Of a stretch of DNA of 33,269 bases, positions 8,971 to 27,684 are shown piece by piece; the first letter of the stretch is position 1, and each line of letters begins with the position of its first letter. A program made the position numbers and the translations under genes. The notes beneath the pieces are model-generated. The model was not told the origin of the DNA and did not search any database. It was given only the letters and a program-made list of their open reading frames with translations. The DNA is from a virus: IMG/VR virus record IMGVR_UViG_3300005512_000177, one strand, 5' to 3'.

Positions 8971-9110
8971 ATCCCTTTCAATTGGAGTGAGCTGTATGGC
9001 TCACCGGATCCTAGGATGGATCCAATTTAGTCGGTTAGTTCTGCAAGGAATTATCGACCAACTCACTCCTTCTATATTTACACAGAACTGATCACAACAC
9101 ACATCCTTTA

Positions 9111-9128
9111 GGGTCTTCACGAAGACCC
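9111..9128. repeat. Inverted repeat GGGTCTTC-AC-GAAGACCC
   Basis: Perfect 8-bp arms read by eye. It is followed by a second hairpin, AGAAAT-N11-ATTTCT (9129-9151), and a T6 run. Confidence 0.7.
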
Positions 9129-9195
9129 AGAAATTCGCTACGCTCATTTCTTTTTTTCCAATTGGCTAACTCTCTTTATGTAGATTGAACTCATA

Positions 9196-9217
9196 ATTCG
9201 GCTATCTCTAGCCGAAT
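9196..9217. repeat. Inverted repeat ATTCGGCTA-TCTC-TAGCCGAAT
   Basis: Perfect 9-bp arms with a 4-nt loop. A further hairpin, GATACT-N7-AGTATC, lies at 9225-9243. Confidence 0.7.
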
Positions 9218-9555
9218 CATTTGGGATACTTTATGTGAGTATCACTCATCTGTAAGTCGCTGTCTAAACCAGGCGGTAAGGCTATACCTGTTCGCTCATT
9301 CTATCCTACGCGATCTAATCCATCCTGCTTACAATCATTATGGATCAAACTGGTGTTGCTTTTTCTCAGAGCACCATCATTTATTTTTAACAATCTCCTA
9401 ACGGGATTCACCTGTCGCTTTTCAGCCGCATTTCCCTGGACTTTACACTGCCTATCTATTGAAATTAAATGGAGCCTATTCCTTGCCTATACATCTATTT
9501 ATAGCGTATTTTTAAAAGCCTATTATTTTTAAATACAAACGGTGGTTTGTATCCC

Positions 9556-9575
9556 AATGAGATCTTACTCTCATT
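9556..9575. repeat. Inverted repeat AATGAGA-TCTTAC-TCTCATT
   Basis: Perfect 7-bp arms, about 40 nt upstream of ATG 9613. Confidence 0.65.
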
Positions 9576-9612
9576 CTCCAGCAAGCCACCTTCCACATTT
9601 TAAATAACCTAT

Positions 9613-10170
9613 ATGCTAATATGGTTCAATCATCCTTCGGTGGCCGGCATCGCCACCACACTACCCCTACAACCCAATGAAATTGGTTGTAACTATTTCT
9701 ATCAAATCAGGCCTACCGCACACATCGTGGTCTATGATCCACAAACCCGCGATCTCATTACCAAAGATACCAAAAACACCAAAATGTTCAATACCACTTT
9801 CTGGGCCAAAAACGGCTTTAAGACAGCATTTTTCAAAGAAGTCATCACTCCCACCAGGTTAAGGCCACAGGATTCTGGCACACTGGCCATCGCCCTGGCC
9901 CTATGGCATCTATCAGCAAAGGACATCACAATCATTGGATGTGGATGGCACAAAAATGACACATCAAGCCTATTCGATCAATACTACACACACAAAAAAG
10001 GGGCCAGCAAGATATCAAACCCTAAACTGAAATTGCTACGCAATTATCAATCTGAATTCAACATCAAGATTAGATTTGTATCTGATACTATTATAGATCC
10101 GGCGTTCGACCACCTGACGATCGAAGATCTATCCATCTCAAAGACCGCTGATATTTCCTATCTAAAATAA
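9613..10170 (+). CDS. Compact glycosyltransferase-like protein (GT42 / CstII-like sialyl- or Kdo-type transferase motifs); the only plus-strand gene
   Basis: Track ORF of 185 aa, which is long for AT-rich DNA. The motifs 'WFNHPSVAG', 'GCNYFYQ', 'DSGTLAIALALWHLSAKDITIIGCG' and 'THKKG' are colinear with GNGPS, CNQFY, TSG..A.AIALGYKEIYLSGID and GHSK as I recall them from Campylobacter CstII. No Shine-Dalgarno is present. Confidence 0.45.
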   Translation: MLIWFNHPSVAGIATTLPLQPNEIGCNYFYQIRPTAHIVVYDPQTRDLITKDTKNTKMFNTTFWAKNGFKTAFFKEVITPTRLRPQDSGTLAIALALWHLSAKDITIIGCGWHKNDTSSLFDQYYTHKKGASKISNPKLKLLRNYQSEFNIKIRFVSDTIIDPAFDHLTIEDLSISKTADISYLK

Positions 10171-10272
10171 ATTTACAGGTATGGTGTCCAACACACACAG
10201 ATTTCTTTGAAGCCCTACTACACTTGTAATATCCAAACACCAAAATCTTCAAATCAAAAATACTCTGTTTCA

Positions 10273-12639
10273 TTACGACACCGTGAAGGTTGCCGCACTG
10301 GCGTAATCACTTCTCCTATCTAACTCGTTACGCGAGGCGACCCTGATGTCCCATTGGTCTCCAGCACTGACTGGTCCCCATATAAACTCTGTATCGTTGG
10401 TCAGCCCAACGGTATAATAAGTCGAATCAGCGGCCCTCTTGACCTGGACGATATACTCCGTGGTGAATGGATCCGTTGATGCGGTCCAAGTGATATCCAA
10501 TTGTTCATCAGCTGTATAACCACTACCTGATAACGCGGTGCTCTGCGATACACTGATATTGGTCGGTGGGCTGACCAACAACGGATTAGGAAGATTTATC
10601 GTTGGCTTAGGTGCGGCCGCCGCCTGACCATCCAACACATAATCAGCACTATTATGTTCCGTAGCAACGAAACCTAAATCACCCCCAGCATTCATATTGA
10701 TACTTTCTATCCTGAACACACCATCAAAATTTAGATTCTTATTCTGGAGCCTGACGAGATCACCAACACTGACATCTGTCACAGCACTGGTGGTAGAAAA
10801 TTGGACAGCCATCTTGTTCCTACTGGTCTTGACCAATGTCTCGGCGATGTTCAACGCCCTCTCTCTATTCGCACAATGAGGCATAGCAACTTCCTTATCC
10901 AGCGGGATGTCATTGTCTTCTAGCAAATAATTGGCATACACACTACTATCCGAAGGTGGCCAGAACACATCATTAGGCTGGTAATCAGCATCAGGATCAG
11001 TATAAGTGACCCTCAATTGGTTTATCTTACGACTTTTACTTTCACCCTGGATCCTTAAACCACCAACCAACACATCTTCATCTATTATCTTGACCACTGG
11101 CGGTGGGTTTGGTGCGGCATCAATGTCCGCGATATTGCCCCCATGGGGAATTTTCAAGAAATACTTCCCAGCCTGGTATGGCATTATACCATTAAAGCTG
11201 GCCAATATACTCCTCACATTATTCAACAGGCTTTCTGAGGTCTCCAGCACACCATCAAACACACTGAACTTGCCCGTTGTGGTAGTGGTGTATGGCACCG
11301 TCTGATCACACTGCTGTGCGGCCAAAGCGATACTATCCCAATCAAAATAATCATTGGTCAGACCTTTTCCATAAATTGGATTACGCAAAAAATCAACCAA
11401 CACATTCACTGGGTTGTTATTATAGACTTCCGTCTCATCAGCATATGCGGTCGAATGCGCAACCGTGCTGGTGGTCGGTAATTCAACAGACCAAGAAATC
11501 GATCCACAAGGATCTGGTCCCTGCGACCCAGTAAAAGGTCCCACCGTTGAAGTCAATTGTATTTGGTATGTGCCAATTGCTGGGATCACTATATCTTCAT
11601 CAATGAAAGAAGTGGCAGGAGTGCTATCAGTAGTCGTCGCTGAATTATAAGGCCTACCATCAGTGTTACTATTGAAGATTTCTTGTGTTGGACCAGCATC
11701 GGTCCTATACACAGCATAATTCGTCACTACCGTTAGCAAATCACCTGGCGTGTTATCCCTAGCACTAGCGGTATTAACCATTTTTATTTTGACCAAAGCA
11801 TTGGTGCTCGTTGTGGTAAGGAAAATATTACCCGTATAATTTCCTCCCCTGGTCAGCGGAATCGGTGGTCTCGTGACATTGGTTCCATTAGCATAATTGC
11901 CCGTGTAACCTACCGTGCTCGTGGTATCACTTGGCCCACCATTATTGGCATTAGTGATTGTTCCATCAAAATTCTGTGAATAACCAGACAATACATTGAA
12001 AACTTTCTTGCCTTGGATCCTTACCTGGATTTTAGGTATTCCTGATCTATAAGGATTATTATCAGCGTCCTCTTGGTTCTCGATCTTCTTCCATCTAAAC
12101 CTACAAGCCAAATAAGCCACACCTCTCAACCTATGGTTGGTGCCCCATCCTGGTGCTTCCTGTAGCAGTGTTGATACCGTCTGGTCTTCCCTACCATCGA
12201 AGAATTGTGTGATCAACCTATCCTGATACGGACCAGAACTTGGTGATCCCTGGACCCCATGGGCGTAACTGCTGACCACTACCTCTTCATCATCAATGAA
12301 AATTTGATCGATACCCTGGACCTGACCCTCACAAATGGCCAAAGCCACATAAAGGTATTCATTGTCCGTGCCATTGGTCGAAACGAACACCCGATAACCA
12401 CCAACACGCCTTTGCCCATAAATCACAGGTATATTACCCACACCAGAATCCTTGTTCAATAATGGACCTAGGATCTGGTTATTGACTTGCCCTGCGGTTA
12501 AATCACCACCACCCATTGAAGGCATAGCGAAAGGTGAAGCGACTATATCAACAACCGCCTTGACCGTATCAGTGACAAAATCTATGGCATCATCAACAAA
12601 ATCTTTTACCTTATCAAAAAATTTCTTATGGAACGGCAT
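10273..12639 (-). CDS. Tail tip / host-specificity protein (lambda J - GTA g15 family) with C-terminal fibronectin-III-like domain
   Basis: Track ORF of 788 aa, the last gene of the tail module. 'IPVIYGQRRVGGYRVF...YLYVALAICEG' is the hallmark N-terminal motif of J-like proteins. The C-terminus 'LDITWTASTDPFTTEYIVQVK...WDIRVASRN' is FN3-like. Confidence 0.75.
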   Translation of the reverse strand: MPFHKKFFDKVKDFVDDAIDFVTDTVKAVVDIVASPFAMPSMGGGDLTAGQVNNQILGPLLNKDSGVGNIPVIYGQRRVGGYRVFVSTNGTDNEYLYVALAICEGQVQGIDQIFIDDEEVVVSSYAHGVQGSPSSGPYQDRLITQFFDGREDQTVSTLLQEAPGWGTNHRLRGVAYLACRFRWKKIENQEDADNNPYRSGIPKIQVRIQGKKVFNVLSGYSQNFDGTITNANNGGPSDTTSTVGYTGNYANGTNVTRPPIPLTRGGNYTGNIFLTTTSTNALVKIKMVNTASARDNTPGDLLTVVTNYAVYRTDAGPTQEIFNSNTDGRPYNSATTTDSTPATSFIDEDIVIPAIGTYQIQLTSTVGPFTGSQGPDPCGSISWSVELPTTSTVAHSTAYADETEVYNNNPVNVLVDFLRNPIYGKGLTNDYFDWDSIALAAQQCDQTVPYTTTTTGKFSVFDGVLETSESLLNNVRSILASFNGIMPYQAGKYFLKIPHGGNIADIDAAPNPPPVVKIIDEDVLVGGLRIQGESKSRKINQLRVTYTDPDADYQPNDVFWPPSDSSVYANYLLEDNDIPLDKEVAMPHCANRERALNIAETLVKTSRNKMAVQFSTTSAVTDVSVGDLVRLQNKNLNFDGVFRIESINMNAGGDLGFVATEHNSADYVLDGQAAAAPKPTINLPNPLLVSPPTNISVSQSTALSGSGYTADEQLDITWTASTDPFTTEYIVQVKRAADSTYYTVGLTNDTEFIWGPVSAGDQWDIRVASRNELDRRSDYASAATFTVS

Positions 12640-13100
12640 TATCTTTTTATCCTATATAAAGTCTGAGGTTCAGCCATCATAGCGATGGTTTCTTTAAACA
12701 CCTCACAATCATTACACAATGTCCAATTATCACTGGTCTTCACATCCTTAATATCAAGATCATCAATCAATTTTGACACAGGATTTAACAATTTGCGATA
12801 ATTCTCAGGGGTCCTGAATTCAGGTAAAAGGAAAATAGAATCTATAATTGCGAATCCGGAATCATCATAAAACCTAGCACCCACATCAACAAAAACGAAG
12901 CCTATTAGCGTATTCATTTTATACAACCCAAAATTAAAACTTTCAATCCTACGCGACATATCATTCTTCAACTGCGTCATTAAGATATCATCTCGAATTT
13001 TTTCTATACCTTTCTCCACCAACGACATCTTGACCATATTGAACAACTGGCCTATATCTCTCCCCACCATCCTTCTAATCCTGATATCATCTATGATCAT
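12639..13100 (-). CDS. Hypothetical protein in the tail module (weak GNAT-like pattern)
   Basis: This is track ORF 12639..13115 with the start moved to ATG 13100. GGGAGGA lies 5 nt upstream, and the ATG forms a TAATG overlap with the upstream stop. 'GFVFVDV...FAIIDSIFLLPEFR...YRKLL' loosely resembles GNAT beta4-alpha3 but lacks the Gly-rich motif. Confidence 0.55.
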   Translation of the reverse strand: MIIDDIRIRRMVGRDIGQLFNMVKMSLVEKGIEKIRDDILMTQLKNDMSRRIESFNFGLYKMNTLIGFVFVDVGARFYDDSGFAIIDSIFLLPEFRTPENYRKLLNPVSKLIDDLDIKDVKTSDNWTLCNDCEVFKETIAMMAEPQTLYRIKR

Positions 13101-13681
13101 TATGTCCTCCCCCATTTAATATCTGTTTGTATCTGTGGAGCAAATTCAAATCCCACATCATTAGCAAAAAATCTCTGCTGGCTATCACTATTAGTCCTCC
13201 TACCAGCCAACTTCTCATAATCAGCAAATTGACTACCAACATTAAATGACAAGGTAGCCGTATCTTTGGATTCACTAATATTGAAATCCTTTATCCTACC
13301 ATCAAAATATTGGAACACCTTGGTGCTATCGAGAGACAAATTATCATCTAACACAGCCCTGTATATAACCACACGCCTATCAATATATTCATTATTCAAC
13401 ACATACCCCAATGTAGTATAATCAACTGCGGTAAAGGCAACACTCATTGAACCAATTTTAAGATCCTTTGTCTCCTGGACATTACCCAGTCCAATGAACT
13501 GGCCCTGTGCCAAATAAGAATTAACACCTGCGTCTGGTGCGCTGGCACTATCATAATCCAGGTCAATAATACCATTATTGAAATACAAAGCGGTCGCTAA
13601 ATGGATTTCAATCAGATCAACTACCCTGATTTGCCGACCCGACAATGAAGTGATCAATCCCGAAGACAATCTTCTCGACAT
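13100..13681 (-). CDS. Distal tail / hub protein (GTA g13 - DUF2163-like position)
   Basis: Track ORF of 193 aa. The call rests on position, second gene after the tape measure, and on translational coupling at both ends. Confidence 0.5.
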   Translation of the reverse strand: MSRRLSSGLITSLSGRQIRVVDLIEIHLATALYFNNGIIDLDYDSASAPDAGVNSYLAQGQFIGLGNVQETKDLKIGSMSVAFTAVDYTTLGYVLNNEYIDRRVVIYRAVLDDNLSLDSTKVFQYFDGRIKDFNISESKDTATLSFNVGSQFADYEKLAGRRTNSDSQQRFFANDVGFEFAPQIQTDIKWGRT

Positions 13682-14271
13682 TAATGATCCTCTGCTAATG
13701 AAATTTCTATTCTGGAAGTGCCATCTAGATTGGTCTTGAACACCTGCCTATCACTCATCAACATCATTTTGAAAGGCACATCATTATAAATTATCGTTGT
13801 GGTGTTATCAACCTCGTGCTCTAATCTAGGCGTAAATTCAAAAGTATCCTCACTACTCAAATCTTGATTGACATCAGCAGTCAGCATATACACTTTATCG
13901 TGATTACTGAATTTTATGAAATCACCACTCTTAAGAGTGCCTCCACCTCCATTGGCTCGCACACTGGATAAACCAGCCACATAGTCTTGAGTGACCAATG
14001 GTGTGCCTGTGGCATTATCACTACTGGTTGATCCATATATTGGCGGCACAAAAGTGAAACTGCCCAACATTCCTTCTTGCTTGGCCAAAAACGCAAACAA
14101 CTCTCCCTGCTCCGCACGGTCTAATGACTTACTCGTGACCGTCATCAACCAATGCTGTGATCCTACTGCTTTCCTATATGTGATACCACTCAAACTTTCA
14201 GTGATCCTTGTAGTGGTCTCACTGGTGATTGACGCACTAACAAAAAAATTCGTTGATAAAGTTCCACTCAT
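13681..14271 (-). CDS. Distal tail protein (GTA g12-like position)
   Basis: Track ORF of 196 aa, immediately downstream of the tape measure with 1-nt stop/start overlaps. Confidence 0.5.
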   Translation of the reverse strand: MSGTLSTNFFVSASITSETTTRITESLSGITYRKAVGSQHWLMTVTSKSLDRAEQGELFAFLAKQEGMLGSFTFVPPIYGSTSSDNATGTPLVTQDYVAGLSSVRANGGGGTLKSGDFIKFSNHDKVYMLTADVNQDLSSEDTFEFTPRLEHEVDNTTTIIYNDVPFKMMLMSDRQVFKTNLDGTSRIEISLAEDH

Positions 14272-16346
14272 TAAACCAGACTCCTTTGCCCATTTTCATT
14301 CAACGCCTGGTTGATCACACCTATGATGGTGTCTTTCCTCTCTGCCAACAAAGTATCAAAACCTGCGGCATCTACAGCATTGATGTTAAAATTAATTACC
14401 ACTTCTGTGCTTCCACTCCTACCATTTGGCACGATACTGCCACTCGTCCTAGGACGGAATTCTTCGGGGCCATCCTCACCAACCATATATGTCTCACCCG
14501 GCACAACAGGACCTCCCCTACGCCTACCTTGGTATTGTGTTCCTTTTATGGCATTCACCTGCGCCATACCTGCCGCCAATTGGGCCGCCGCGAATATGAA
14601 ACTGAAAGGTGGTGGATAAGTCGATAGCGCATTAGTCACACCCTTATATGTGTTGATCAATGCCTCTGCTATCTGGACTTTTTTCCTAGCCTCGAACGCC
14701 TTCTTGTTGAAAGTGGCCAGGTTATCTAACATACTCATAAACCCTGCCTGACCTATTTCTACCTTCTCTTTGGTAGTCATATTTTCTAGATCTAATTCAT
14801 CAAACTTGCCCTGCTTGATCCTATCAAGATTATCCTTATGGATCTGGGCTTTCTTGTTGGCTTCTTCTTGTTCTAATCTACTCCTCTGCGCAATGGCATC
14901 CTTGGTGATGATGGTCTTTAATTGCTCAAACTCTCTATGGTTGATTTCACCAGTATCATATAATTTTTTTGTCCTATCCAATTGCTCTTTTTCTTTACGA
15001 GCGATGGCCTGGATCTCGGTTTCATTCAATTGTAAAAGATTATCAACGAAACTCTTGTTGGCACCTTTTAGATTTTCATAATTGATGATATTGGCTTCTA
15101 TGGCCTTGGCCAATCCAGCCTCCCTAGCAGTGATCTCTGGCAAGATGGTCCTGTAATCTTTATACTGCGCATTTATGTTCTGTAAAACCCTAGCCTGTTC
15201 TAGTCTCTTCTGATTCAATTCCTCTAATTCAGCTTTTTCTTCTTCCGTGAGCTCTATGACCTCATTGCCAAGATCCATATAGTCCTGTATGCCCTGCGAT
15301 GCTTCATCAGTCTTATCCTTCAACATCGCGAACGCAGTGGCCACACCAGCAACTGCCGCCGCCAACAATATCAATGGATTGGCCAATGTGGCGATATTGA
15401 ACGCCGCCATCGCTATGGTAGCACTCCTAATGGCAGCCGCCATCCTCAAGAACATCGCACCCACCTTTAGACCAATCAAGCCACCCAAGGCCATCATAAC
15501 AAGATCACTATTGTCTTTCAAGAATTTTAAGGCATTGCCAGTTCCGATAATGGCCGATGCTAAACCCTGACCTATCGCCGTGGCGTATTCATCTATTACA
15601 TCCGCATTATCTTCAAAGAATTCATTGAGATCACCCAATTCACTATTCAAGGTATCAAAGAATTCCCTGGATATCACATCTTGGAATTTGAACAATTTAT
15701 CCTGTAACATTGAAAGGGTTCCTTCTAATGTTTCAGCAAACTCATCAGTGGCACCACCAAACTCTCCACCCTTACCAAACACCCTTTGGAACGCTTCTCT
15801 GGTCTCTTCTATAGAAACCGTAGCACCTTCTTTGAATCCTAACAGAGCCCTCACACCTCTTTCCCTAAAGATGTCAGCTGATGCTATACCACCCGACAAG
15901 GCCCGTTGGATCTGCTCACCAGTGGTCTGGAAATCTAATCCAGTAACCGCGGCCACATTACCGGTGATCTCTAAAATATTTTTCAATTCATCAGCATCTT
16001 TAGCCACAACAGCCAAATTACCTGATGCCGCTGATATCTGTTCAAGGCTGAACGGAACCCTACCAGCAAATTCAGTCAAGGTGTCAAATGCTCTGGCACC
16101 TTCTTCAGCACTACCAAATAAGAATTTGAACCTTAGGCCAAGACCCTCGACCTGCTTTCCAACATTGATCAAACTGCTGATCGCCCTACCAGCACCGATG
16201 GCCGCGATCGCTCCAGCGGCGACCTTCGCCGCCGTGCCAAGATTGAAGGAGGCCTTCTGCGTCCTACCCAATGCCCTTTCCAGATTATCAATCCGCTGGG
16301 TGTTCTTTACTACGACATCAAGGTCTATTCTTTGTTTTGTAGCCAC
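14271..16346 (-). CDS. Tail tape measure protein
   Basis: Track ORF of 691 aa with a GTG start after GAGGAG. It has long coiled-coil E/K/Q-rich segments plus a central hydrophobic block (LVMMALGGLIGLKVGAMFLRMAAAIRSATIAMAAFNIATLANPLILLAAAVAGVATAF). It follows the G/T chaperone pair. Confidence 0.85.
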   Translation of the reverse strand: MATKQRIDLDVVVKNTQRIDNLERALGRTQKASFNLGTAAKVAAGAIAAIGAGRAISSLINVGKQVEGLGLRFKFLFGSAEEGARAFDTLTEFAGRVPFSLEQISAASGNLAVVAKDADELKNILEITGNVAAVTGLDFQTTGEQIQRALSGGIASADIFRERGVRALLGFKEGATVSIEETREAFQRVFGKGGEFGGATDEFAETLEGTLSMLQDKLFKFQDVISREFFDTLNSELGDLNEFFEDNADVIDEYATAIGQGLASAIIGTGNALKFLKDNSDLVMMALGGLIGLKVGAMFLRMAAAIRSATIAMAAFNIATLANPLILLAAAVAGVATAFAMLKDKTDEASQGIQDYMDLGNEVIELTEEEKAELEELNQKRLEQARVLQNINAQYKDYRTILPEITAREAGLAKAIEANIINYENLKGANKSFVDNLLQLNETEIQAIARKEKEQLDRTKKLYDTGEINHREFEQLKTIITKDAIAQRSRLEQEEANKKAQIHKDNLDRIKQGKFDELDLENMTTKEKVEIGQAGFMSMLDNLATFNKKAFEARKKVQIAEALINTYKGVTNALSTYPPPFSFIFAAAQLAAGMAQVNAIKGTQYQGRRRGGPVVPGETYMVGEDGPEEFRPRTSGSIVPNGRSGSTEVVINFNINAVDAAGFDTLLAERKDTIIGVINQALNENGQRSLV

Positions 16347-16479
16347 TCGCTCTCTGTCTCCTCATTTGTTGGTTGGCGTAATCTTGTTGTTTCTTGATCC
16401 AAGCGGACCAAAGATCCAATTCCAACACAGACAATTCCATAACATCCTTTATCGGCATCTTGAGCCGATCAGCCAACAT
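16318..16479 (-). CDS. Tail assembly chaperone, gpT-like segment (53 codons; free-standing or the -1 frameshift extension of 16509..16856)
   Basis: Not in the track because it is under 60 aa. Hand translation gives MLADRLKMPIKDVMELSVLELDLWSAWIKKQQDYANQQMRRQRASGYKTKNRP, resembling gpT-type segments (L..rl.m....l...S..El..W.A+). Its frame is -1 relative to 16509..16856 and is open from 16524. Confidence 0.55.
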   Translation of the reverse strand: MLADRLKMPIKDVMELSVLELDLWSAWIKKQQDYANQQMRRQRASGYKTKNRP

Positions 16480-19724: not shown

Positions 19725-20435
19725 CTAGATAACGTTGGGATAAATCTTCCTTCGCATCTCAGCATATAGTTGTCTTTGTTTAGGATCATTAAGATCCAAT
19801 TTGTTTATATCAACATTTTTGCTAACACCTTCGGGATTTTGATTTGAACTTGACCCTGAACCAGTTGGTCCTGCTTGAACAAAATGCGGATTATCTTGAA
19901 GCCACATTTTAACTGCGTTTTCCACATCCAACGGCTCTCCAGTTTCAGTGTATTTCGTGTTTCCTGTCCTAGGATCCACAATCTCAACTGCCCCTGTTTC
20001 TGACATCCTGACCTGCTCTCTCACAAGTTTTACAACCTGTTCAGGATTGACTGCCTTATATTTGCTCGCCGCATTTATAAGAGCACCATCAACCTTGATC
20101 TTGGTCAATTCATCAGTAAGAGTAGATATCTTTGAGTTGGCCTTTTCAGCCTGCTCTTTCAATATCTTTTCAAACTCACCCTTTCGCTTTTGCTCTTCCA
20201 ATTTAGATAGCTCTTCCTTTTCTAGCAATTGCTTATAGGTATTAACATCAACACCATCAAATTGTTTCAACACACGCTCTTCACCGTGCTTTCTAGCACT
20301 TTTCATCGCGGCATCAAATTGTTCTTTGGTATAAACTGGTTGATTATCAGTTCCCTGCGTTGGATTATTTTTTGAGTCTTCTTGAGCAGGCGCAGTGCTC
20401 TGTTCAGTATTGACTTCCAATGTTTCATCACTCAT
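19725..20435 (-). CDS. Scaffolding protein
   Basis: This is track ORF 19725..20450. ATG at 20435 (MSDETLEV...) is preferred because GGAGGA lies 7 nt upstream. It has an acidic N-terminus and long E/K coiled-coil stretches (LLEKEELSKLEEQKRKGEFEKILKEQAEKANSKISTLTDELTKIK), and sits directly before the capsid gene. Confidence 0.65.
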   Translation of the reverse strand: MSDETLEVNTEQSTAPAQEDSKNNPTQGTDNQPVYTKEQFDAAMKSARKHGEERVLKQFDGVDVNTYKQLLEKEELSKLEEQKRKGEFEKILKEQAEKANSKISTLTDELTKIKVDGALINAASKYKAVNPEQVVKLVREQVRMSETGAVEIVDPRTGNTKYTETGEPLDVENAVKMWLQDNPHFVQAGPTGSGSSSNQNPEGVSKNVDINKLDLNDPKQRQLYAEMRRKIYPNVI

Positions 20436-20497
20436 TGTGGTGTCCTCCATTTGTTTGCAACGCTGGATAACGTTGAATAATATTATTTATTAACAAA

Positions 20498-21052
20498 TTA
20501 ATAGAACATCTCACTATTGGGATCTAACCCCCAGCATTCATAATATCCACTATTACGCAATTGACCTTGGGCTTTCTTTAATTTGTCTAACTTCTGAATC
20601 ATTATCAAAGGTGCCTTGCCATAACTGAAACTCACACCCTTATGCTTACCTTTATTTTTGGGATGATCATACAACACAGCGAATTCCTTATTTTTATCAT
20701 GGCCAACTCTACACAGCATAGCCAGCTGTTTCTCACTTATCTTGCGATTGAAATATAAAATGACAATATCCAGATTAAAGCAATCAAACAGATCGCAACA
20801 CTGATCAATCTGGTCCAGCACATCCACCTTCGCAACTGCGATCTGTATTTTGCGATCCGCAAGTGCTCTTTTCGCATACGGACAGATTGCCGCTCCACTC
20901 GCCTTATGAGTTTTAGCAACAACCTGTCTGATCCACTTCTCAATGTCTTTACTTCCTACGACCACTTGGTTTTCGCGGCTTCCTTCTACCTGACATTGGC
21001 TTTTTCCTTCTTCCACTTGCTGGCATTTTAGACCTCCTAGTTCGAGAGCCAA
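20498..21052 (-). CDS. Cys-rich hypothetical protein (184 aa)
   Basis: Track ORF with a TTG start. It has ten Cys, including 'ICPYAKRA' and 'QCCDLFDC'. No family recognised. Confidence 0.5.
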   Translation of the reverse strand: MALELGGLKCQQVEEGKSQCQVEGSRENQVVVGSKDIEKWIRQVVAKTHKASGAAICPYAKRALADRKIQIAVAKVDVLDQIDQCCDLFDCFNLDIVILYFNRKISEKQLAMLCRVGHDKNKEFAVLYDHPKNKGKHKGVSFSYGKAPLIMIQKLDKLKKAQGQLRNSGYYECWGLDPNSEMFY

Positions 21053-21075
21053 TTATGGCCCTACCTGTTGTTGTG

Positions 21076-21324
21076 TTAAGACCGGCCATTTATTGGCTCC
21101 CTGCCTTTGTTTTTTGATGGAGCATACAACTCCAACAATTCCATTCCACGATAGTGTGCCGCTTTCTTGATTTTTATCAATGCCTTACGAGCCTGTTCAG
21201 CATATCGCCTACTGGGACGCTCTATCAGCTTCTCCATCGCAGTGAAATACTGGACACATAACATCTTAAACTGCTCGTGCCTGGCTGATTCAACAGGTCT
21301 CCTATATATCCGCGCTATGCCCAT
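21076..21324 (-). CDS. Small basic helical hypothetical protein (82 aa)
   Basis: Track ORF, coupled 1 nt to the upstream gene. 'YAEQARKALIKIKKAAHYRGMELLEL' is an amphipathic basic helix. Confidence 0.5.
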   Translation of the reverse strand: MGIARIYRRPVESARHEQFKMLCVQYFTAMEKLIERPSRRYAEQARKALIKIKKAAHYRGMELLELYAPSKNKGREPINGRS

Positions 21325-21560
21325 TATTCCATATCCTCTGATTTTACAGGACTAAAATTGATACTATGCCAAGGTGCTGTCAGTCCGTGGCTATTTTTAT
21401 ATATCTCACCCGTCTGGACGGATTGGGCTGCCATAAACTCCTTGGTGCCGTTGCCATTACGTTTTTTTTGGATCACTTTACAAGGTCGCCATTCCTGGCC
21501 CCTAGCATAGAATTTGTAATGATTGGTCTTCTGACCTTTTGAAGTTTTAACACCAGCCAT
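21324..21560 (-). CDS. Small basic hypothetical protein (78 aa)
   Basis: Track ORF directly after the portal gene. Confidence 0.5.
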   Translation of the reverse strand: MAGVKTSKGQKTNHYKFYARGQEWRPCKVIQKKRNGNGTKEFMAAQSVQTGEIYKNSHGLTAPWHSINFSPVKSEDME

Positions 21561-21577
21561 TTCAACATACCTCTATG

Positions 21578-23158
21578 TTATGTCTGAATGTTTGAACCAG
21601 GTGTAGCATCATTAGATTCTCCATCAAATAAAGAACGTATTTCTGGATGTAATTCCATAATCTGTTCATTGGTATAACCTTGCTCTATCATCTGTCTCAT
21701 ATGCGCAATCATATCTTGCGGCGATGTCATAGCTGGATGCTGTGTCTGAGTGTTGATCTGTGATTGATCCATTTGAGCCATTAACTCTTCCTTGGCCTCC
21801 TCATCTGGTTCTATTATTTCTATGATCTTCTCATCAATCTTCTGCCTGATCCTAGGATCTGTTGGGTTCGTATCAGCCGCTTTCTTTAGGATGTCCATTT
21901 CATAATTCCTGTCCCTGATGTTGAATACACTTGGATACTTGATCTCACCATCCCATTCCATATTTTGGAATCTGGCGAACAACCTGAACAACTGCTCTTC
22001 AGCGAGTTGAAGATTCTTACTCTTTTCAATCAATTTGGTATCTAACTGAAGCATTTCAGTCTGTAAAGCGATGCCTGACATAGACCTCTGTTCAATCGCC
22101 CTAACACTACCAAGATGTCCCATCCTATCAATCGCCTTGATCTTGTTATCGATTGAATTAAGTATCATATCTATTGATTGACCTGATGGTTGTAATAAAG
22201 AAGGCCGTAATCCAGGATCTAATTCATTTGGTATCGTTATAATAGCACCCGCTCCAGCACTAGCTTCAGTATCAATAGTTTTGACCAATGTTGGATGTCC
22301 TGATATCCTTATCGTCTGTTCAATCTCACTTAACTCATTATAGATCGCATTCTGCATATCAGCTATATCACCAATATCAGAAACTCCAATACCTCGCGAT
22401 GGCGATCTCTGCGCATAAACCCATACCGCAGGGATTCTTCCCAATTGGTTTGGCATCTCTGAAATAACTTTCAAAGGTTCTGACGAATCTGGATCATAAT
22501 TTTCAACATACACTTTATCTTTGGTGAATGTTCTCAGGTAATATTTGGTGTTTTGGTTATAAGCCCTCTGCTCCTGTTCAAACAATCGCAAGAAACTTAA
22601 ATCATACAATCCATTTGGCAGCCTTTCAAATTCCCAATCAATAATATTTTGGGGAGTGTAGATTGATCCATATGGTCTGATGCCTTGCTGTAATTCTTCC
22701 GCCCTTGTGCCAACAACCGTGGATGGTTTATCAATCAACACTAAAGCGTGACCATATATGCTAGACTGGATATTGACATCTCTCATAAATTGATTGAAAT
22801 CCCTACCCTCCAGGTCAGTGTCTTTCATAAACGCCTCTAATTCAGGACTATTAGCAATATTACCAAATTCTCTCTTTGGTTCATTCCTAAACAGGAAACT
22901 ATTATAGATATGGATTATGCTACGACAATGATTATCTAAAGGTGTCTGCGCGATCCTATTGACATATTCAGCTGAATTTTCATTGACATACTTGGTTAGA
23001 TAATTGCCCAACCTATACTGCGCTCCGCCAGAATAAGATCGTTGGAGGAAATTCCACCTGTTTATGTAATTCACATATTCTTCGTGTAAAGGTATTCCCT
23101 CTAAATTTGGAACTGCTGAATCTCTATCGTTGCTGTTTGTTAAATTATAATCTGCCAT
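21578..23158 (-). CDS. Portal protein
   Basis: Track ORF of 526 aa. Its ATG abuts the TerL stop (TAGATG). The call rests on size and its position after the large terminase. Confidence 0.75.
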   Translation of the reverse strand: MADYNLTNSNDRDSAVPNLEGIPLHEEYVNYINRWNFLQRSYSGGAQYRLGNYLTKYVNENSAEYVNRIAQTPLDNHCRSIIHIYNSFLFRNEPKREFGNIANSPELEAFMKDTDLEGRDFNQFMRDVNIQSSIYGHALVLIDKPSTVVGTRAEELQQGIRPYGSIYTPQNIIDWEFERLPNGLYDLSFLRLFEQEQRAYNQNTKYYLRTFTKDKVYVENYDPDSSEPLKVISEMPNQLGRIPAVWVYAQRSPSRGIGVSDIGDIADMQNAIYNELSEIEQTIRISGHPTLVKTIDTEASAGAGAIITIPNELDPGLRPSLLQPSGQSIDMILNSIDNKIKAIDRMGHLGSVRAIEQRSMSGIALQTEMLQLDTKLIEKSKNLQLAEEQLFRLFARFQNMEWDGEIKYPSVFNIRDRNYEMDILKKAADTNPTDPRIRQKIDEKIIEIIEPDEEAKEELMAQMDQSQINTQTQHPAMTSPQDMIAHMRQMIEQGYTNEQIMELHPEIRSLFDGESNDATPGSNIQT

Positions 23159-24406
23159 CTATACTCCTGTTGCTCCTGTTTGAAAGTTGAATCTCTGGGG
23201 CTCCACATTCATTTGTTTCTTGGTTATTGGATACAAGAAACTGATCAAATAACCTAAAGAATCGTTTGCGTGATCCCATCCTTCATCCTTTGTTGGCAGG
23301 TTAGTTCCGGCCTTGTAAGTATGCCTGATTAAACTATTTATTAGGGCTTTACACTTAGGGTCTATAACTACACCTCTTATACCCATGGCACTACACAGCT
23401 TACTATTAACACTATTGATCCTATCACGGATACTCATATGCCTGCTTGGCATTTTCAATATGAAACCATTGTTCTGTAAGATCGAAGCATCAGTCCTCCT
23501 AGCACTACTGGTTCGCCTCTGTCTTGCCGCTGGATCAGGATAAGCAAATATTTTTTTGCCAGGATAACGCCTTAAAATCTCCTCACACATCTCATCCGTG
23601 TTGGAACTCCATATCTGTATTTCATCAAACACATAAACGATGTTGTCCTTGATATATGACACGGTAGCAAACATTGGATTGAGGTTAAAGTCAATACCAA
23701 TATGGACAGCAGTGACATCCTCTGGCACCGCAACATTCTTAACATTATGTTTCATATCGAACCCATAATATATCACACCAGAATAAGTTTCAAAAGTGGC
23801 CTGATACTCCTGGCGAAATGTCTTGGCATCTAGATCTTTTTTAGCTTGTTCTATCTCCTCGTCAGGAACCATACCTCCATCAATAGTGGTATATTGCCAA
23901 CTCTGCCAATTTTCATCTGTGGTCTTTTGCCCCTGTTGATATAGATCGTGGAACCAATTCAAACCCTTTGGGGTTCCTGTAAAAAAAACGTGGCCACCTG
24001 TGTCTGACAATGTTGGTCTCAACACTTCTTTCCAGGCCGATTCTGATATGTCAGCGGTCTCATCTAGCACTAAAAAATTTAGACCAACACCACGAAGTGA
24101 GTCCGGATTATCAGCACCTCTTAGGCATATCCTACTGCCATTACGAAGATGTAAAGTCAATTCTGCTTCGTTGGCCTTCTTAATCCAATTGAGGTCATTC
24201 AGCATTTTTTTAATCTGAACCCATACTACCTGCTTGGCCTGTCTATATGATGGGGCAACATACCAACAAAGTTGATTTGGTTGCCGGGCGAAATATGCCA
24301 ACTGCCTGATTGCTAAAAAAGTTTTTCCGAAGCGTCGGCCTGTCACAAGCACTTTGAATCTAGCGGGATGATCTGCGACTTCCTTCTGAGGTAAAGATAA
24401 TTTCAT
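23159..24406 (-). CDS. terL: Terminase large subunit
   Basis: This is track ORF 23159..24424 (TTG start). ATG at 24406 (MKLSLPQKE...) is preferred because it forms a TAATG overlap with the TerS stop. Motifs: Walker A-like 'VTGRRFGKT', Walker B 'FLVLDETAD', and a C-terminal nuclease region with 'GIDFNLNP' and 'DHANDSLGY'. Confidence 0.85.
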   Translation of the reverse strand: MKLSLPQKEVADHPARFKVLVTGRRFGKTFLAIRQLAYFARQPNQLCWYVAPSYRQAKQVVWVQIKKMLNDLNWIKKANEAELTLHLRNGSRICLRGADNPDSLRGVGLNFLVLDETADISESAWKEVLRPTLSDTGGHVFFTGTPKGLNWFHDLYQQGQKTTDENWQSWQYTTIDGGMVPDEEIEQAKKDLDAKTFRQEYQATFETYSGVIYYGFDMKHNVKNVAVPEDVTAVHIGIDFNLNPMFATVSYIKDNIVYVFDEIQIWSSNTDEMCEEILRRYPGKKIFAYPDPAARQRRTSSARRTDASILQNNGFILKMPSRHMSIRDRINSVNSKLCSAMGIRGVVIDPKCKALINSLIRHTYKAGTNLPTKDEGWDHANDSLGYLISFLYPITKKQMNVEPQRFNFQTGATGV

Positions 24407-24711
24407 TAAGCATCTTCTGGCCAAGGTAAAGGATCATTGCTTTCAGTTTCTGTTGGTGAATCCTGTTGAGAAAGATAATTTTTTCCTAAGAATATTAACA
24501 TCCTTACATCCTTATCCTTGACCGCTTTTTCATATTGCGCCCTTCTCAAACCCTTTTTACCTTCTGCTCTGCCTTTTTCAATCACATCTTTGTATCTCTT
24601 CTTGAGATTATCAACACTGGTGTCCATCACCATCGCGATCTCTTCGTAACTACACATTATCAGTGCCAGTCTTTCAATCATATCTTTATCAAGTTTGTAT
24701 GACTTCGCCAT
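24406..24711 (-). CDS. terS: Terminase small subunit
   Basis: Track ORF of 101 aa directly upstream of TerL. It has an HTH-like 'CSYEEIAMVMDTSVDNLKKRY' and 'MLIFLGKNYLSQQD', typical of small terminases. Confidence 0.65.
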   Translation of the reverse strand: MAKSYKLDKDMIERLALIMCSYEEIAMVMDTSVDNLKKRYKDVIEKGRAEGKKGLRRAQYEKAVKDKDVRMLIFLGKNYLSQQDSPTETESNDPLPWPEDA

Positions 24712-25058
24712 TATAATGTTTTCTCCGCTACTATTATTCTAAAACTTCTTGCGTCAGTATCGCCCTGTGTAGTGACGATCGTTACTTTGACCGTATATGT
24801 ATTTTGTGCGGTGCCATTATGGACTCTTACACTGACCACTTTACCCGAACTTATTATAACATCTGTGTTTGCGTCTGTAGGTAATGCCAAAGGTGATAGA
24901 TCACCTGATATTGTGCTGATGCTGACACTAGCAGATAAAATGCTGTCTCCACTAGCGAGGTAATCGGTAAAATCTAATCCATATTGGATGTTACTATCTG
25001 GATCTTTGACAAAATATAATCCAGCGTTATCCTTTCGTGCGCCTGTTAAGTTTGCCAT
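24711..25058 (-). CDS. Small Ig-like fibre/tail-associated protein
   Basis: Track ORF of 115 aa. The pattern 'VKDPDSNIQYGLDFTDYLASGDSILSASV...YTVKVTIVTTQGDTDARSFRIIV' matches a family I recognise next to fibre genes in many phages (KDP...LDY.FDWS..L..GDTI...). Confidence 0.5.
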   Translation of the reverse strand: MANLTGARKDNAGLYFVKDPDSNIQYGLDFTDYLASGDSILSASVSISTISGDLSPLALPTDANTDVIISSGKVVSVRVHNGTAQNTYTVKVTIVTTQGDTDARSFRIIVAEKTL

Positions 25059-27145
25059 TACGCCTCACTCCTTACTCTTGGAGTTGTAAATCTTGATGAT
25101 AATGCTGGTATTTTCAATTTGATACTCCTTGTTTCTTCTGGGACTAAAACTGTCCTTGTTTCTGCTGTTATCATATTTACTTTATTTTCACTATCAACTA
25201 AAGTTATTCTATTTTCACTTACTGGCGATAATTGCCTGGTTTCACTTTCAACCTTTATTATATTGAAAGGATCTGCCTGGAAGAATAATCGTCCCACCAA
25301 TACTGTGCTGTGAAGAGCTGTAATTGCCGTCGCCGCACCGTGTATGAAAGATGGTATCGTTTCTGATGTTGAAACTATTACGGTAGTATCTATCGCTCCA
25401 CTTGGTTTGAACGACGGCTCTACATCTACCACTGCGAATGTTCCACTTATGTCAGCAAATGTGTCAGTTATCGCAGAAGCAGTCAATACAGGTGAAAAGG
25501 CCCCTGTGATTGAAACTGGTGTGTCAGAAAGTGTAAATTGGTAATTTCCTATCAATGTTGGCGTGAATGCCGTTGTGATATCACACTCAAATTCTAAAAT
25601 ACCACCAGCATCACAAGCCACTGAAGCAGTGCTTGAAATTTCCACATTAGCCGCTTTTTCAAAAGCACTATTTTCATCTATAGTAAATGTGCCAGCGAAT
25701 GTTACAATTTCAGTTCCTACTTTGAATGAAGGACTGATTGTCATTTCTACTTCATTTGCTAATTCAAATTCTCTATCCCAAGTATCTTCTGGCCAATTAT
25801 CCCAACCTGATTCATCACCTAACCAAGTCAGCACAGGCCAGTTTTCCCAATCAGTCGTTGCTAGGAAATCCCAAGTGTATTCACCTTCATTCAACGAGAA
25901 GTTATCTACAGCGAAACCAGTCTCGAAATATGTGTTTAAGTTGAACGAATTCCAAGTGTAATCACCTGCGATATCATAGATCATACTAGCGGTGGTTGTC
26001 ACCGTGTGAGCCGGTGCTATATTGAAGTTGGTATCAATTAATCCGTGAATTTTGTTACCATCAATTGATGAAGTAAATGCTGAACTGATAATGCTGTCTG
26101 AAAAAACCAAGTTAGCATATGAAAGAGTAGCATCAAAAAGAACTGTGGTATCTATTCCTGTGTCAAATTTTAAATTACTTTGATTGGTGGTTGAACTTGT
26201 TATAACAATATTGCTCCCACTAAATTTTCTATTTGCGGACTGCTCACTGATGCTGACTACTGAGCTGATAGATGCCTCACCTTGGAATGCTACGGTTGGA
26301 ACTACATCCATACTTGCCGTAGTAGATATTTCACCAATCGTATCACTGCCTACACCATCAATCGTATATAAATTGGCCTCCCAACTCCTCTGAACGGTGC
26401 CTTTGAAATATATCTTTGGTTCATATGAACCACCAGGATTCGTTATGGGTTCTAATCTCAATCGCACCATACCCCAATTTGCTGTCATAGAGGGAGATGA
26501 GAAATCTAATACGAATCCTTTGCCTATGTGTCCAGTCAATTCACCACCTGTGACACTGCTTCCCTGTGAAGTGAATGTAATGGTTGCTCCACCATTACCA
26601 TCTAACGGACTTGAGGCCGTTATTGTCTGATTGAAATTGGCAGCAGTCAAATTCTGTATAAAATTACTATTACCACCACCACTCTTACCATTTTCTGTGT
26701 AGAAAAAATCAAAACTAGTTGGCACCACATAACCACCATTCAATGTGGTGTGTGTTACCTTAACACGCGGAACATATTGACCAGTTACAACCGCTCTACA
26801 TTTAGAGCTTGTCAAAACTGCGTCTAATGAAGTCCTAGGATCCCTGTTGTCTAGATCCGCCTGAATTGCTTTTATACCCGAATTCTGTCTGTTGGGCGCT
26901 GCCGTGGCCGCGGCTTCTGTGGCACCTGCTCCATAAGCTGGTGTGTTGATGCCAGTGATATTATTGTATGCGAAGAATGACCAGCTTGACCCATCATCAT
27001 CATAATGGGACAGCGTAGAGGTTCCACTATCATCTACACTTTCATCTGTGGGTGTGATACTATAGATGTAGTAATTTAAGTCTGTGGGTGTGGTAGTCCT
27101 ATTACCCTGACCATCTACATATATGAATTGTTTTGTATCAGACAC
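25058..27145 (-). CDS. Large structural (fibre/side-fibre-like) protein, 695 aa
   Basis: Track ORF with a GTG start. It is T/S/N-rich beta-type sequence with a Trp/acidic patch (TWDFLATTDWENWPVLTWLGDESGWDNWPEDTWD) and a C-terminal oligo-repeat. Confidence 0.6.
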   Translation of the reverse strand: MSDTKQFIYVDGQGNRTTTPTDLNYYIYSITPTDESVDDSGTSTLSHYDDDGSSWSFFAYNNITGINTPAYGAGATEAAATAAPNRQNSGIKAIQADLDNRDPRTSLDAVLTSSKCRAVVTGQYVPRVKVTHTTLNGGYVVPTSFDFFYTENGKSGGGNSNFIQNLTAANFNQTITASSPLDGNGGATITFTSQGSSVTGGELTGHIGKGFVLDFSSPSMTANWGMVRLRLEPITNPGGSYEPKIYFKGTVQRSWEANLYTIDGVGSDTIGEISTTASMDVVPTVAFQGEASISSVVSISEQSANRKFSGSNIVITSSTTNQSNLKFDTGIDTTVLFDATLSYANLVFSDSIISSAFTSSIDGNKIHGLIDTNFNIAPAHTVTTTASMIYDIAGDYTWNSFNLNTYFETGFAVDNFSLNEGEYTWDFLATTDWENWPVLTWLGDESGWDNWPEDTWDREFELANEVEMTISPSFKVGTEIVTFAGTFTIDENSAFEKAANVEISSTASVACDAGGILEFECDITTAFTPTLIGNYQFTLSDTPVSITGAFSPVLTASAITDTFADISGTFAVVDVEPSFKPSGAIDTTVIVSTSETIPSFIHGAATAITALHSTVLVGRLFFQADPFNIIKVESETRQLSPVSENRITLVDSENKVNMITAETRTVLVPEETRSIKLKIPALSSRFTTPRVRSEA

Positions 27146-27174
27146 TCAAGCATCCCAGAAATGTTAAAGACTTA

Positions 27175-27684
27175 TTAGTCTAAACTAATAGCAAGGTTGC
27201 TGGCTGAAATCGTGAATTGGTCGCCTGAACTTACAGTTTTAGGCGTGGTCAAAGCACCGAAAAACAACACATTGCCACCTGAACTATTGTCCATAATTGC
27301 GATATGAGTTACTGTTGATCCATAACCAGCATCTGTGGTGTAATTTGCTCCTGCTACTGGAAATGAAACTTGTGTCGTATTTTTAATCTGACCTGTGTTG
27401 TATCCACCTGCTGAACCTGCCGCTCCGAATGTGACCGATTGTCTAACATACTGGGTTGAACCACCTGTTGTAATTTCAAAATCACCCCAATCCGATGCTG
27501 ATCCTGTAGCTGAAGTTCCTGATTCTAAAGCACCTGCTACATTATTGCTGTTATCGGCGAAAAGCGCCACATAAACAGTTGCTGGCGGTTGGTATCCCGC
27601 ACCTGTTCCTGCTGTAAGGCTACCATTGCCATATCTTAAAACGTGATTTAAAAGAGTGTCTTCTAAATAATTTGACGCTGACAT
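27175..27684 (-). CDS. Conserved fibre-associated protein
   Basis: Track ORF of 169 aa; AAAGGAGAC lies upstream. The pattern 'NYLEDTLLNHVL...VYVALFAD...YVRQSVTFGAA...VSFPVA...THIAIMDNSSGGNVLFFGALT...SGDQFTISASNLAISLD' matches a family widespread beside tail-fibre genes (N..EN.LL...F......Y.AL.T..P....G.EVSG..Y.R). Confidence 0.55.
   Translation of the reverse strand: MSASNYLEDTLLNHVLRYGNGSLTAGTGAGYQPPATVYVALFADNSNNVAGALESGTSATGSASDWGDFEITTGGSTQYVRQSVTFGAAGSAGGYNTGQIKNTTQVSFPVAGANYTTDAGYGSTVTHIAIMDNSSGGNVLFFGALTTPKTVSSGDQFTISASNLAISLD

Follow-up and report, generated by a model that had tools for sequence, protein, structure and literature searches.

The genome of an uncultured siphovirus, IMG/VR record IMGVR_UViG_3300005512_000177, changes its base composition twice, at the borders of a head/tail core that is AT-richer than the surrounding early and fibre genes. 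This raises the question of whether the two steps mark segments of different descent, a lasting compositional compartment or a fault of assembly. In the initial annotation, they were taken for a recent chimera of two lineages or for a chimeric assembly. Segmental GC content in phages has been textbook knowledge since lambda, and it is well established that tailed phages evolve as mosaics and exchange, among other modules, tail-fibre/receptor-binding cassettes. The GC step of the present genome likewise probably represents the seams of a recombinational mosaic, the modules of which have different histories.

Closed genome and compositional step

The window, i.e. the whole stretch of 33,269 nucleotides analysed, closes into a circle of 33,146 bp. 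Its terminal 123 bp (33147..33269) are an exact copy of bases 1-123 and constitute an in-frame assembly overlap. The large fibre ORF (3864 nt, single terminal stop) runs unbroken through the circle join, all genes are intact, and all but one are located on a single strand. The contig represents the entire genome of an uncultured siphovirus, assembled as a circle, and is related to uncultured contigs of viral and metagenome collections that probably stem from aquatic or marine habitats. Megablast of positions 9000-28000 against cultured phages yielded no match, and the nearest cultured TerL proteins (phage DSL-LC06, several pelagiphages and Vibrio phages) share only 45-53 % identity (protein mode), which is too remote for host placement. 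TerL scans of genome collections (with a single protein and with a 7-sequence alignment) reached ~52 % identity at best and returned neither a prophage nor a host assignment; for this reason we infer, rather than observe, the origin of the two compositions.

Fitting two segments to the circle by maximum likelihood placed change points at 8820 and 27960, in agreement with the sliding-window profile and with the switch points originally read from sampled lines (8.9-9.0 kb and 27.2-28.0 kb). The core has a GC content of 41.5 % and the remaining arc of 50.3 %, a difference of 8.8 points; the log-likelihood gain is 126 and two segments are favoured by BIC. A four-segment model (52.5, 45.8, 50.8 and 41.5 % GC) performed nearly as well. 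While the step proposed in the initial annotation was thus recovered, its size of ~15 points was too high an estimate, since the 60-nt lines sampled for it, although close to the given values upon recount, represent extremes. Long alternative-frame ORFs are likewise more frequent in the GC-rich arc (about 0.9 versus 0.6 per kb in the core), as is to be expected, since stop codons are AT-rich.

The step is carried by third codon positions, with a GC3 of 0.39 in the core and of 0.57 in the arc. When synonymous codons are redrawn according to genome-wide usage and the proteins are left unchanged, an arc-minus-core GC3 difference of -0.006 ± 0.010 is expected, versus +0.178 observed (z = 19); the step is real and far outside chance. 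Non-coding DNA (~1 kb only, part of it possibly coding) has 46.4 % GC in the arc and 38.4 % in the core. The same null bears on the notion that Gly/Thr/Ser-rich fibres and Arg-rich early proteins raise the GC content at equal synonymous usage. G, S and T are indeed abundant in fibre proteins, as are R and W in early proteins, and on protein content alone the arc would be expected to gain 1.3 GC points. The observed coding difference, however, is 8.2 points, and together with the GC3 deviation this led to rejection of amino-acid content as the main cause; its probability as an explanation is close to nil.

The initial assumption that a step of this kind is unusual for a phage is not upheld: the same fit applied to lambda separates 57.0 from 44.2 % GC, a larger difference than the present one. 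Both genomes have contiguous, third-codon-position based GC blocks with boundaries at module borders. The sign, however, is reversed, the structural core being AT-rich here and the head/tail left arm GC-rich in lambda, and the AT-rich part of lambda includes leftward-transcribed genes, whereas the present genome is single-stranded in coding except for one gene. Non-random GC3 'genome landscapes' in phages were described by Lucks et al. (2008; PMC2266997), who weigh mosaicism and translational selection as causes.

The AT-rich conserved core (8841..27726, minus strand) comprises packaging, head and tail genes called by PHROG and Pfam matches. Following an intergenic region (8971-9612) and the single plus-strand ORF (9613-10170), it encodes a J-like central fibre (10273-12639), Dit (13681-14271), tape measure (14271-16346), tail tube (17155-17580), major capsid (18823-19692), scaffold (19725-20450), portal (21578-23158), TerL (23159-24424), TerS (24406-24711) and a fibre adaptor gene group consisting of a Gp77-like protein (24711-25058), a 695-aa ORF (25058-27145) and a Gp80-like protein (27175-27684). 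The core is nearly unchanged in sister contigs from other metagenomes (96-98 % nucleotide identity), with values of 96-99 % for the independent contigs L001, L025, L043 and L060.

Junctions and modules of the GC-rich arc

Similarity to sister contigs drops at both GC boundaries (GC and identity breaks at 8820/8840 and 27960/27726-27727). At junction 1 (8820..8850), the GC change point at 8820 and the identity break to L043 at 8840 both fall within the first ParB gene, some 40 codons after the start codon, and the reading frame is kept. L043 is collinear with the genome over 16325-8552, at 95.8 % identity right of position 8840 and 81.9 % left of it. In the ~300 bp left of the break, G/C faces A/T of L043 at 32 sites and the opposite applies at 11, resulting in 51.3 versus 44.3 % GC, i.e. 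a ParB allele 7 points richer than its sister.

The adjoining GC-rich early module (2138..8840, minus strand; 50.8 % GC, GC3 0.61) harbours genes for two ParB-N proteins (7940-8970), an ABC-ATPase::GNAT fusion (6846-7961) and two paralogous small basic proteins (3024-3506 and 3925-4449), next to further ORFs without assigned function (within 2138..8840). Among viral contigs, ORF 6132-6779 has no relative, and ORF 3925-4449 is matched by G002 and two distant contigs only. G-ending codons are preferred among those ending in purines (0.79), C-ending ones among those ending in pyrimidines are not (0.41).

At junction 2 (27685..27960), identity to the sister contigs breaks off at 27726/27727, within the spacer that separates the stop codon of ORF 27734-28276 from the beginning of the Gp80-like gene; the GC change point (27960) lies inside ORF 27734-28276. 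L060 and L025 are 95.5-96 % identical to the genome over 22940-27726; their collinearity ends exactly at 27726/27727, beyond which identity is 81-88 % or sequences are unalignable. The arcs of L060 and L025 also have 48-52 % GC.

The GC-rich fibre cassette (27727..33146, minus strand; 52.5 % GC over 27961-32400, GC3 0.49-0.68) prefers both C- and G-ending codons and comprises a 180-aa ORF (27734-28276) with no relative above 53-58 % identity, a phrog_677-like fibre connector (28276-29112), a 584-aa ORF (29139-30893) and the C-terminal part of the large fibre (30903-33146). The latter continues into an intermediate block (1..2099, minus strand; ~45.8 % GC over 32401-2224), which carries the N-terminal Mtd_N part of this 1287-aa tail fibre (1620 to 1, continuing at 33146) and a 159-aa gene (1620-2099). 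GC3 climbs along the fibre, with 0.35 at its N-terminal and 0.6-0.67 at its C-terminal end. A diversity-generating retroelement, suggested by the Mtd_N domain, was rejected, because none of the ORFs scanned gave a reverse transcriptase match (PHROG/Pfam); such an element would also not produce a kilobase-scale GC shift. Insertion of a site-specific island or moron was discarded as well, given that PHROGs/Pfam revealed no integrase, no tRNA gene was found, and no repeat >12 nt is common to both junctions.

Genealogies of the modules and alternative readings

Third-position divergence from the sister contigs is 3-11 % in the core, 32 % in ParB and 23-24 % in the fibre genes, thus differing 3- to 6-fold between blocks. 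Towards L056 the relation is reversed, with 20 % in a fibre gene and 53-58 % in the core. In the core tree, the genome groups with L060 (SH-aLRT 99) and L056/L057 belong to the other major clade (99), whereas in the arc-gene tree it groups with L056 and L057. For clades chosen with the trees already in view, core data reject a clade of the genome with L056 and L057 (delta lnL 184, AU p = 5e-7), and arc-gene data reject its union with L060 only marginally (AU p = 0.053). Divergence pattern and conflicting trees indicate that the blocks differ in genealogy.

The gene for the fibre connector (28276-29112) shares 95 % amino-acid and 91 % nucleotide identity with L055/L056, the TerL of which is only 69-72 % identical. 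A GC-rich fibre gene next to a divergent terminase in these contigs supports a chimera in the form of exchange within the family. Relatives of either composition exist: G001 is AT-rich (about 40 % GC) with a step of 5 points only, G006 is GC-rich (48.7 %) with a step of only 4 points, and L055/L056 have 48-50 % GC throughout. The complete genome G002 (terminal repeats) has a matching two-part layout with the same gene boundaries (44.4 vs 50.9 %). GC level and codon regime of the fibre cassette match those of family members that are GC-rich throughout. In one fibre gene family, GC3 ranges from 0.40 to 0.58 among contigs of unlike composition at 83-95 % protein identity. Across the family, fibre-block GC3 follows the core in G001, G003, G006 and G007 and exceeds it in the present genome (+0.18) and G002 (+0.08) in the genome table and likewise in the sister L060; the fibre excess is therefore lineage-specific.

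The proposed chimera of two lineages thus gains support from identity breaks, divergence, conflicting trees and relatives of both compositions, but requires amendment in three respects. Both 'lineages' fall inside one syntenic phage family, the arc is not one block (early and fibre codon regimes differ, with an intermediate stretch between them), and the early GC excess recurs in 6 of 7 relatives and is, hence, not simply recent.

The same combination of alleles could also originate from assembly, if the core of one co-occurring strain had been joined to the arc of another via conserved syntenic stretches. Metagenomes do contain closely related strains side by side, as with L025 and L043 from a single sample, and among the viral contigs searched no independent one joins these exact arc alleles to this core. 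The circle, however, closes with an in-frame overlap and intact genes, junction 1 lies within a gene of preserved reading frame, and L043, L060, L025 and complete G002 share the AT-core/GC-arc architecture at the same gene boundaries. A chimeric assembly, the alternative offered by the initial annotation, gained no support from these independent contigs and appears very unlikely; since they share the architecture, the compositional step would stand even if the allele combination were artefactual.

A further alternative dispenses with any swap: early and accessory genes would be held in place at higher GC3 by selection on codon usage or mRNA, or by a region-specific mutational regime, and the step would simply be inherited. 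Early GC3 exceeds that of the core by 0.14-0.22 in 6 of 7 related genomes or contigs (early/core 0.61/0.39 in the present genome, 0.47/0.31 in G001, 0.62/0.46 in G002, 0.49/0.35 in G003, 0.53/0.39 in G007 and 0.48/0.30 in L145), with GC-rich G006 alone lacking the offset, which agrees with a persistent compartment no less well than with repeated import. Contigs L141-L146 share early-module genes, GC3 step and codon-class pattern, and in L142-L146 the step occurs at the same J-like/ParB junction. The dinucleotide signature of the early module also resembles that of the core (delta* of 29-106 against three core segments, 44-94 among these segments); delta* is noisy at 6 kb and does not separate the two, and therefore cannot decide between import and maintenance.

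A maintained compartment, however, leaves the fibre block unexplained, as this tracks the core in G001, G003, G006 and G007. By functional class, early genes exceed the core in 6 of 7 relatives, and the fibre block behaves inconsistently. Equally unexplained are the coincidence of identity and synonymous-divergence breaks with GC breaks and the 7-point excess of the ParB allele over its sister within the same 300 bp. In G005, the ParB-ATPase module even has the opposite sign (GC3 0.18-0.34 vs 0.41-0.49 in the core), and per-ORF GC3 inside early regions is heterogeneous (0.32-0.76), as for a mixed gene pool. We regard this alternative as a whole as rather unlikely. Its more specific form, in which early genes are kept at a GC3 of ~0.5-0.6 with a strong preference for purine codons ending in G irrespective of core composition, seems somewhat more doubtful still; early-expression selection (codon or mRNA needs after DNA entry) or transcription-linked mutational asymmetry may account for such upkeep. 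Under the mosaic reading, which we prefer, the early part of the step is an older, family-wide property rather than the product of one recent event, its source possibly being a shared pool of early genes.

Proposed exchanges and their significance

In the mosaic proposed here, the fibre cassette would have been swapped with a GC-rich lineage of the family (G006 or L055/L056/L059-type) through recombination close to or at gene borders. The exchanged segment would span 27.73-33.15 kb and reach on into the large fibre, covering its C-terminal two thirds, while the N-terminal anchor presumably retained its core-like composition; the exchange may consist in import of the arc or in the core having been swept in. 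The early module (2.14-8.84 kb) would represent a GC3-rich allele, with a crossover to the core within the first ParB gene at ~8840. We infer that the two compositions arose in lineages with unlike mutational equilibria, probably in different hosts, that exchange took place during co-infection and that the time elapsed since would be too short for the compositions to converge.

In bacterial genomics, the gradual convergence of acquired DNA of atypical composition on that of the recipient is termed 'amelioration'. As under this concept, atypical GC3 marks segments of other history in the present genome. TerL GC3 among its relatives, however, ranges from 0.33 to 0.63; with such variability the family lacks a definable stable recipient composition, and the direction of transfer is not readable from composition alone. 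Breakpoints at or near gene borders, conflicting module trees and a fibre with conserved N-terminal anchor and variable C-terminal part agree with tailed-phage mosaicism in general, from which the present case does not differ in essence. Modular phage evolution is reviewed in the discussion of PMC2266997. What the present genome adds is the presence of donor-type and recipient-type compositions in one syntenic family, the seams being visible as GC steps.

The contig can be recorded as a true mosaic genome and does not have to be set aside as misassembled. Its two junctions are placed, one in ParB at 8840 to within ~20 bp and the other in the 27726/27727 spacer. Host prediction is affected insofar as a composition-based assignment would conflict between the two arcs. 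The fibre cassette represents, on this reading, the recently exchanged part and probably sets host range. The genome is also useful for studying how modules are exchanged among uncultured siphoviruses of this abundant group.

Circular genome organization and gene content

The identity of bases 1–123 with bases 33147–33269 shows that the assembly closes into a circle of 33,146 bp. Across the join, the large tail-fibre ORF (1620 to 1, then 33146 to 30903) stays in a single 3864-nt frame with one terminal stop. According to the ORF map of the window, every gene but one locates on the minus strand. Identities and order, given here in the direction of transcription, derive from PHROG and Pfam scans. 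The intergenic region (8971–9612) is followed by genes for two ParB-N proteins (8970 to 7940), an ABC-ATPase::GNAT fusion (7961–6846) and small proteins without assigned function (6779–2138), together the early module, and by a 159-aa gene (2099–1620). Next come the 1287-aa fibre (1620–1 and 33146–30903; N-terminus Mtd_N), a 584-aa ORF (29139–30893), a phrog_677-like fibre connector (28276–29112) and a 180-aa ORF (27734–28276). The core (8841–27726) comprises a Gp80-like fibre protein (27175–27684), a 695-aa ORF (25058–27145), a Gp77-like adaptor (24711–25058), then TerS, TerL, portal, scaffold, major capsid, connectors, tail tube, tape measure, Dit and tail protein, and a J-like central fibre (12639–10273). 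The sole plus-strand gene, ORF 9613–10170 (185 aa), has no family match; it is kept at the same position in the relatives G001 (56% identity) and G002 (49%), and a weak homologue (29–33%) in G006 and G007 adjoins the capsid gene instead.

No tRNA gene was found in the window, and no replication, lysis or integrase genes were recognised by PHROG and Pfam scans of its ORFs of at least 80 aa. Nothing closely similar turned up among cultured phages, where the most similar TerL proteins reach 45–53% identity (phage DSL-LC06, several pelagiphages and Vibrio phages).

A paralogous pair (3024–3506 and 3925–4449) encodes small, very basic, Arg/Trp-rich proteins with the common motif LWK[ST]GPDPE, matching no Pfam or PHROG family; their homologues are GC3-rich (0.46–0.72) in every relative, regardless of the relative's own composition. 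The annotated GTG start of 3925–4449 is probably set too far upstream, since homology starts near residue 67. The 1287-aa fibre gene (1–1620 and 30903–33146) harbours many internal direct repeats (e.g., ~396 nt at 73–75% identity, with offsets of 720 and 972 nt), in agreement with the modular fibre described in the initial annotation.

Extent and codon-level basis of the GC step

An AT-rich core at about 9.0–27.5 kb, set off by some 15 points from a GC-richer arc, had been proposed in the initial annotation. The step itself exists: the sliding GC profile runs at 46–55% over 1–9 kb, 37–45% over 9–27.5 kb and 50–54% over 28–33 kb, and a two-segment maximum-likelihood fit on the circle places change points at 8820 and 27960, with 41.5% GC inside and 50.3% outside. 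Contiguous GC blocks are statistically supported (LLR 126), the two-segment model being favoured by BIC, and four segments fit almost equally well (27961–32400, 52.5%; 32401–2224, 45.8%; 2225–8794, 50.8%; core, 41.5%). The amplitude, however, is 8.8 points; the original counts of 60-nt lines were reproduced within 2 points, and the overstatement arose because the sampled lines exaggerate the contrast.

The step is located at third codon positions. Per-gene GC3 amounts to 0.28–0.49 in the core and 0.49–0.72 in the arc, except for the fibre N-terminus and gene 1620–2099 (0.36–0.44). A null model that keeps the proteins unchanged and resamples synonymous codons at genome-wide frequencies predicts an arc-minus-core GC3 difference of -0.006 ± 0.010 versus +0.178 observed (z = 19); protein content explains just 1.3 of 8.2 coding-GC points. 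Provisional non-coding stretches differ likewise (46.4 vs 38.4% GC), the arc share comprising only ~1 kb, some of it possibly coding.

The arc is a composite rather than uniform. The C-ending share of two-fold pyrimidine codons and the G-ending share of two-fold purine codons are 0.29 and 0.45 in the core, 0.41 and 0.79 in the early module, 0.68 and 0.71 in the C-terminal fibre block, and 0.48 and 0.46 in the N-terminal fibre block; along the large fibre, GC3 rises from 0.35 at the N-terminus to 0.60–0.67 near the C-terminus. In dinucleotide signature, the early module is as near to the core (delta* × 1000 of 29–106) as core segments are to one another (44–94), and the fibre block is far from both (139–184).

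Segmental GC is already known in phages and the window adds another example of low novelty. Lambda (J02459) yields a larger step with the same two-segment fit (57.0 vs 44.2% GC, LLR 396), and lambda as well as many other phages possess strongly non-random GC3 landscapes, for which mosaicism and translational selection have been considered as causes, tail genes being often mosaic (Lucks et al. 2008, PMC2266997). The window differs from lambda-type landscapes in that the sign is inverted, its structural core being the AT-rich side, and in that its two parental compositions both occur inside one syntenic family.

Junctions and conflicting histories of core and fibre connector

At junction 1, contig L043 from another metagenome is collinear with window 16325–8552 at 95.5% identity. 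In 250-nt windows, identity is 92–99% in the core except for one tape-measure patch, and falls to 90% and then 83% on entering the ParB gene. The base-level alignment breaks at 8840 (95.8% identity to the right, 81.9% to the left); the change point of the GC fit, 8820, is 20 bp away. To the left, the window carries G/C against A/T in L043 at 32 sites and the reverse at 11 (51.3 vs 44.3% GC); at third positions, ParB diverges by 32% and six core genes by 3–11%. The tape-measure patch (15250–15500, 250 nt) is 74% identical within surroundings of 96–98% and may stem from gene conversion over a short tract or from a difference in repeat length.

At junction 2, contigs L060 and L025, also of samples other than the window's, are 95.5–96% identical to 22940–27726, and collinearity ends at 27726/27727, within the spacer separating the stop codon of ORF 27734–28276 from the Gp80-like gene's start. 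The sister-lineage contigs L043, L025 and L060 trace to samples 3300044657 and 3300044676. Past 27727, the 180-aa and 584-aa ORFs are replaced or hardly alignable and the other fibre genes are 81–88% identical, the arc of both contigs likewise having 48–52% GC. Third-position divergence is 5–9% in the core versus 23–24% in fibre genes. No att-like repeat joining the two junctions was found.

A chimeric assembly as the source of the step, also raised initially, would accord with the window's exact allele combination being found in no independent contig. It is nevertheless unlikely given that the circle closes in frame, every gene is intact, junction 1 lies within an uninterrupted gene, and the AT-core/GC-arc architecture recurs in three independent contigs (L043, L060 and L025) and one complete genome (G002). 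A strain-level chimera would alter allele pairing, yet leave the compositional step in place.

A true mosaic also fits the reciprocal identities of the fibre connector (28276–29112) and TerL. The connector of contigs L055/L056 (48–50% GC) is 95% identical to the window's at the amino acid and 91% at the nucleotide level, their TerL (GC3 0.62–0.63) only 69–72%; corresponding connector (aa) and TerL values are 93% and 69% for L057/L058 (TerL GC3 0.50), 90% and 81% for L059 (0.61), and 86–88% and 99% for the sisters L060/L025 (0.37–0.38). Relative to L055/L056, third positions are saturated in the core (53–58% divergence) versus 20% in the fibre gene. Maximum-likelihood trees agree with this pattern: Gp77 plus TerS pairs the window with L060 (SH-aLRT 99) and places L056/L057 in the other major clade (99), and the fibre connector pairs the window with L056, then L057. 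With groups chosen after the trees were seen, core data reject a window+L056+L057 clade (delta lnL 184, AU p = 5e-7), and arc data reject a window+L060 clade just marginally (delta lnL 14, p = 0.053).

Base composition across the syntenic family

Queries with portal, ParB, ATPase and fibre connector retrieved uncultured viral and metagenome contigs that form a syntenic family, several of its members being complete or nearly so. G001 (30.2 kb, terminal repeats) has ~40% GC and a best two-segment difference of 5.1 points; G002 (31.7 kb, terminal repeats) switches between a core of 44.4% and an arc of 50.9% at the window's gene boundaries; G003, G007 and G008 (29–32 kb) have 41–43% GC with differences of 3–6 points; and the partial G006 (24.6 kb) has 48.7% throughout. 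The window's step is the largest of the family.

The major capsid protein (18823–19692) is 86–89% identical to those of G001/G002 and only 26–28% to those of G003, G006 and G007, while the flanking head genes stay at 52–71%; the family thus has two very divergent capsid-gene types at one syntenic position. The distal-tail block 10273–14271 (Dit, tail protein, 158-aa ORF and J-like fibre) shares 60–84% protein identity with GC-rich G006 and only 35–47% with G001/G002, though these are nearer for head genes; its GC3 is 0.37–0.44 in the window versus 0.51–0.56 in G006. Judged from these identities, it is an additional mosaic block concealed within the AT-rich core.

Length-weighted GC3 of core, early and fibre compartments is 0.39, 0.61 and 0.57 in the window, 0.31, 0.47 and 0.27 in G001, 0.46, 0.62 and 0.54 in G002, 0.35, 0.49 and 0.32 in G003, 0.39, 0.53 and 0.38 in G007, and 0.55, 0.51 and 0.56 in G006; contig L145 has 0.30 (core) and 0.48 (early). 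Among these genomes, fibre-block GC3 usually follows the core and is enriched only in the window's lineage and, less so, in G002, which fits import of a GC-rich cassette. Early GC3 exceeds core GC3 in six of the seven, the window included (exception, G006), and contigs L141–L146 display a step at the same J-like/ParB junction. Owing to this recurrence, the early-module share of the step is not one recent event.

The proposed two-lineage chimera is, therefore, supported by the sequence comparisons in a refined form: identity breaks, divergence and trees point to two histories in one genome, with the arc being composite and the early excess family-wide. The early module can be read in two ways. 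Early genes may move through a common pool with its own composition, for which the very uneven per-ORF GC3 inside early regions (0.32–0.76) can be cited; the ParB / ATPase::GNAT module of the more distant relative G005 (locus L042, 19.6–21.3 kb) has GC3 of 0.18–0.34 vs 0.41–0.49 in the core, opposite in sign to the window. Alternatively, a force acting in place may keep the GC3 offset. Under either reading, exchange belongs to the explanation, because the window's early allele demonstrates a crossover relative to that of its sister.
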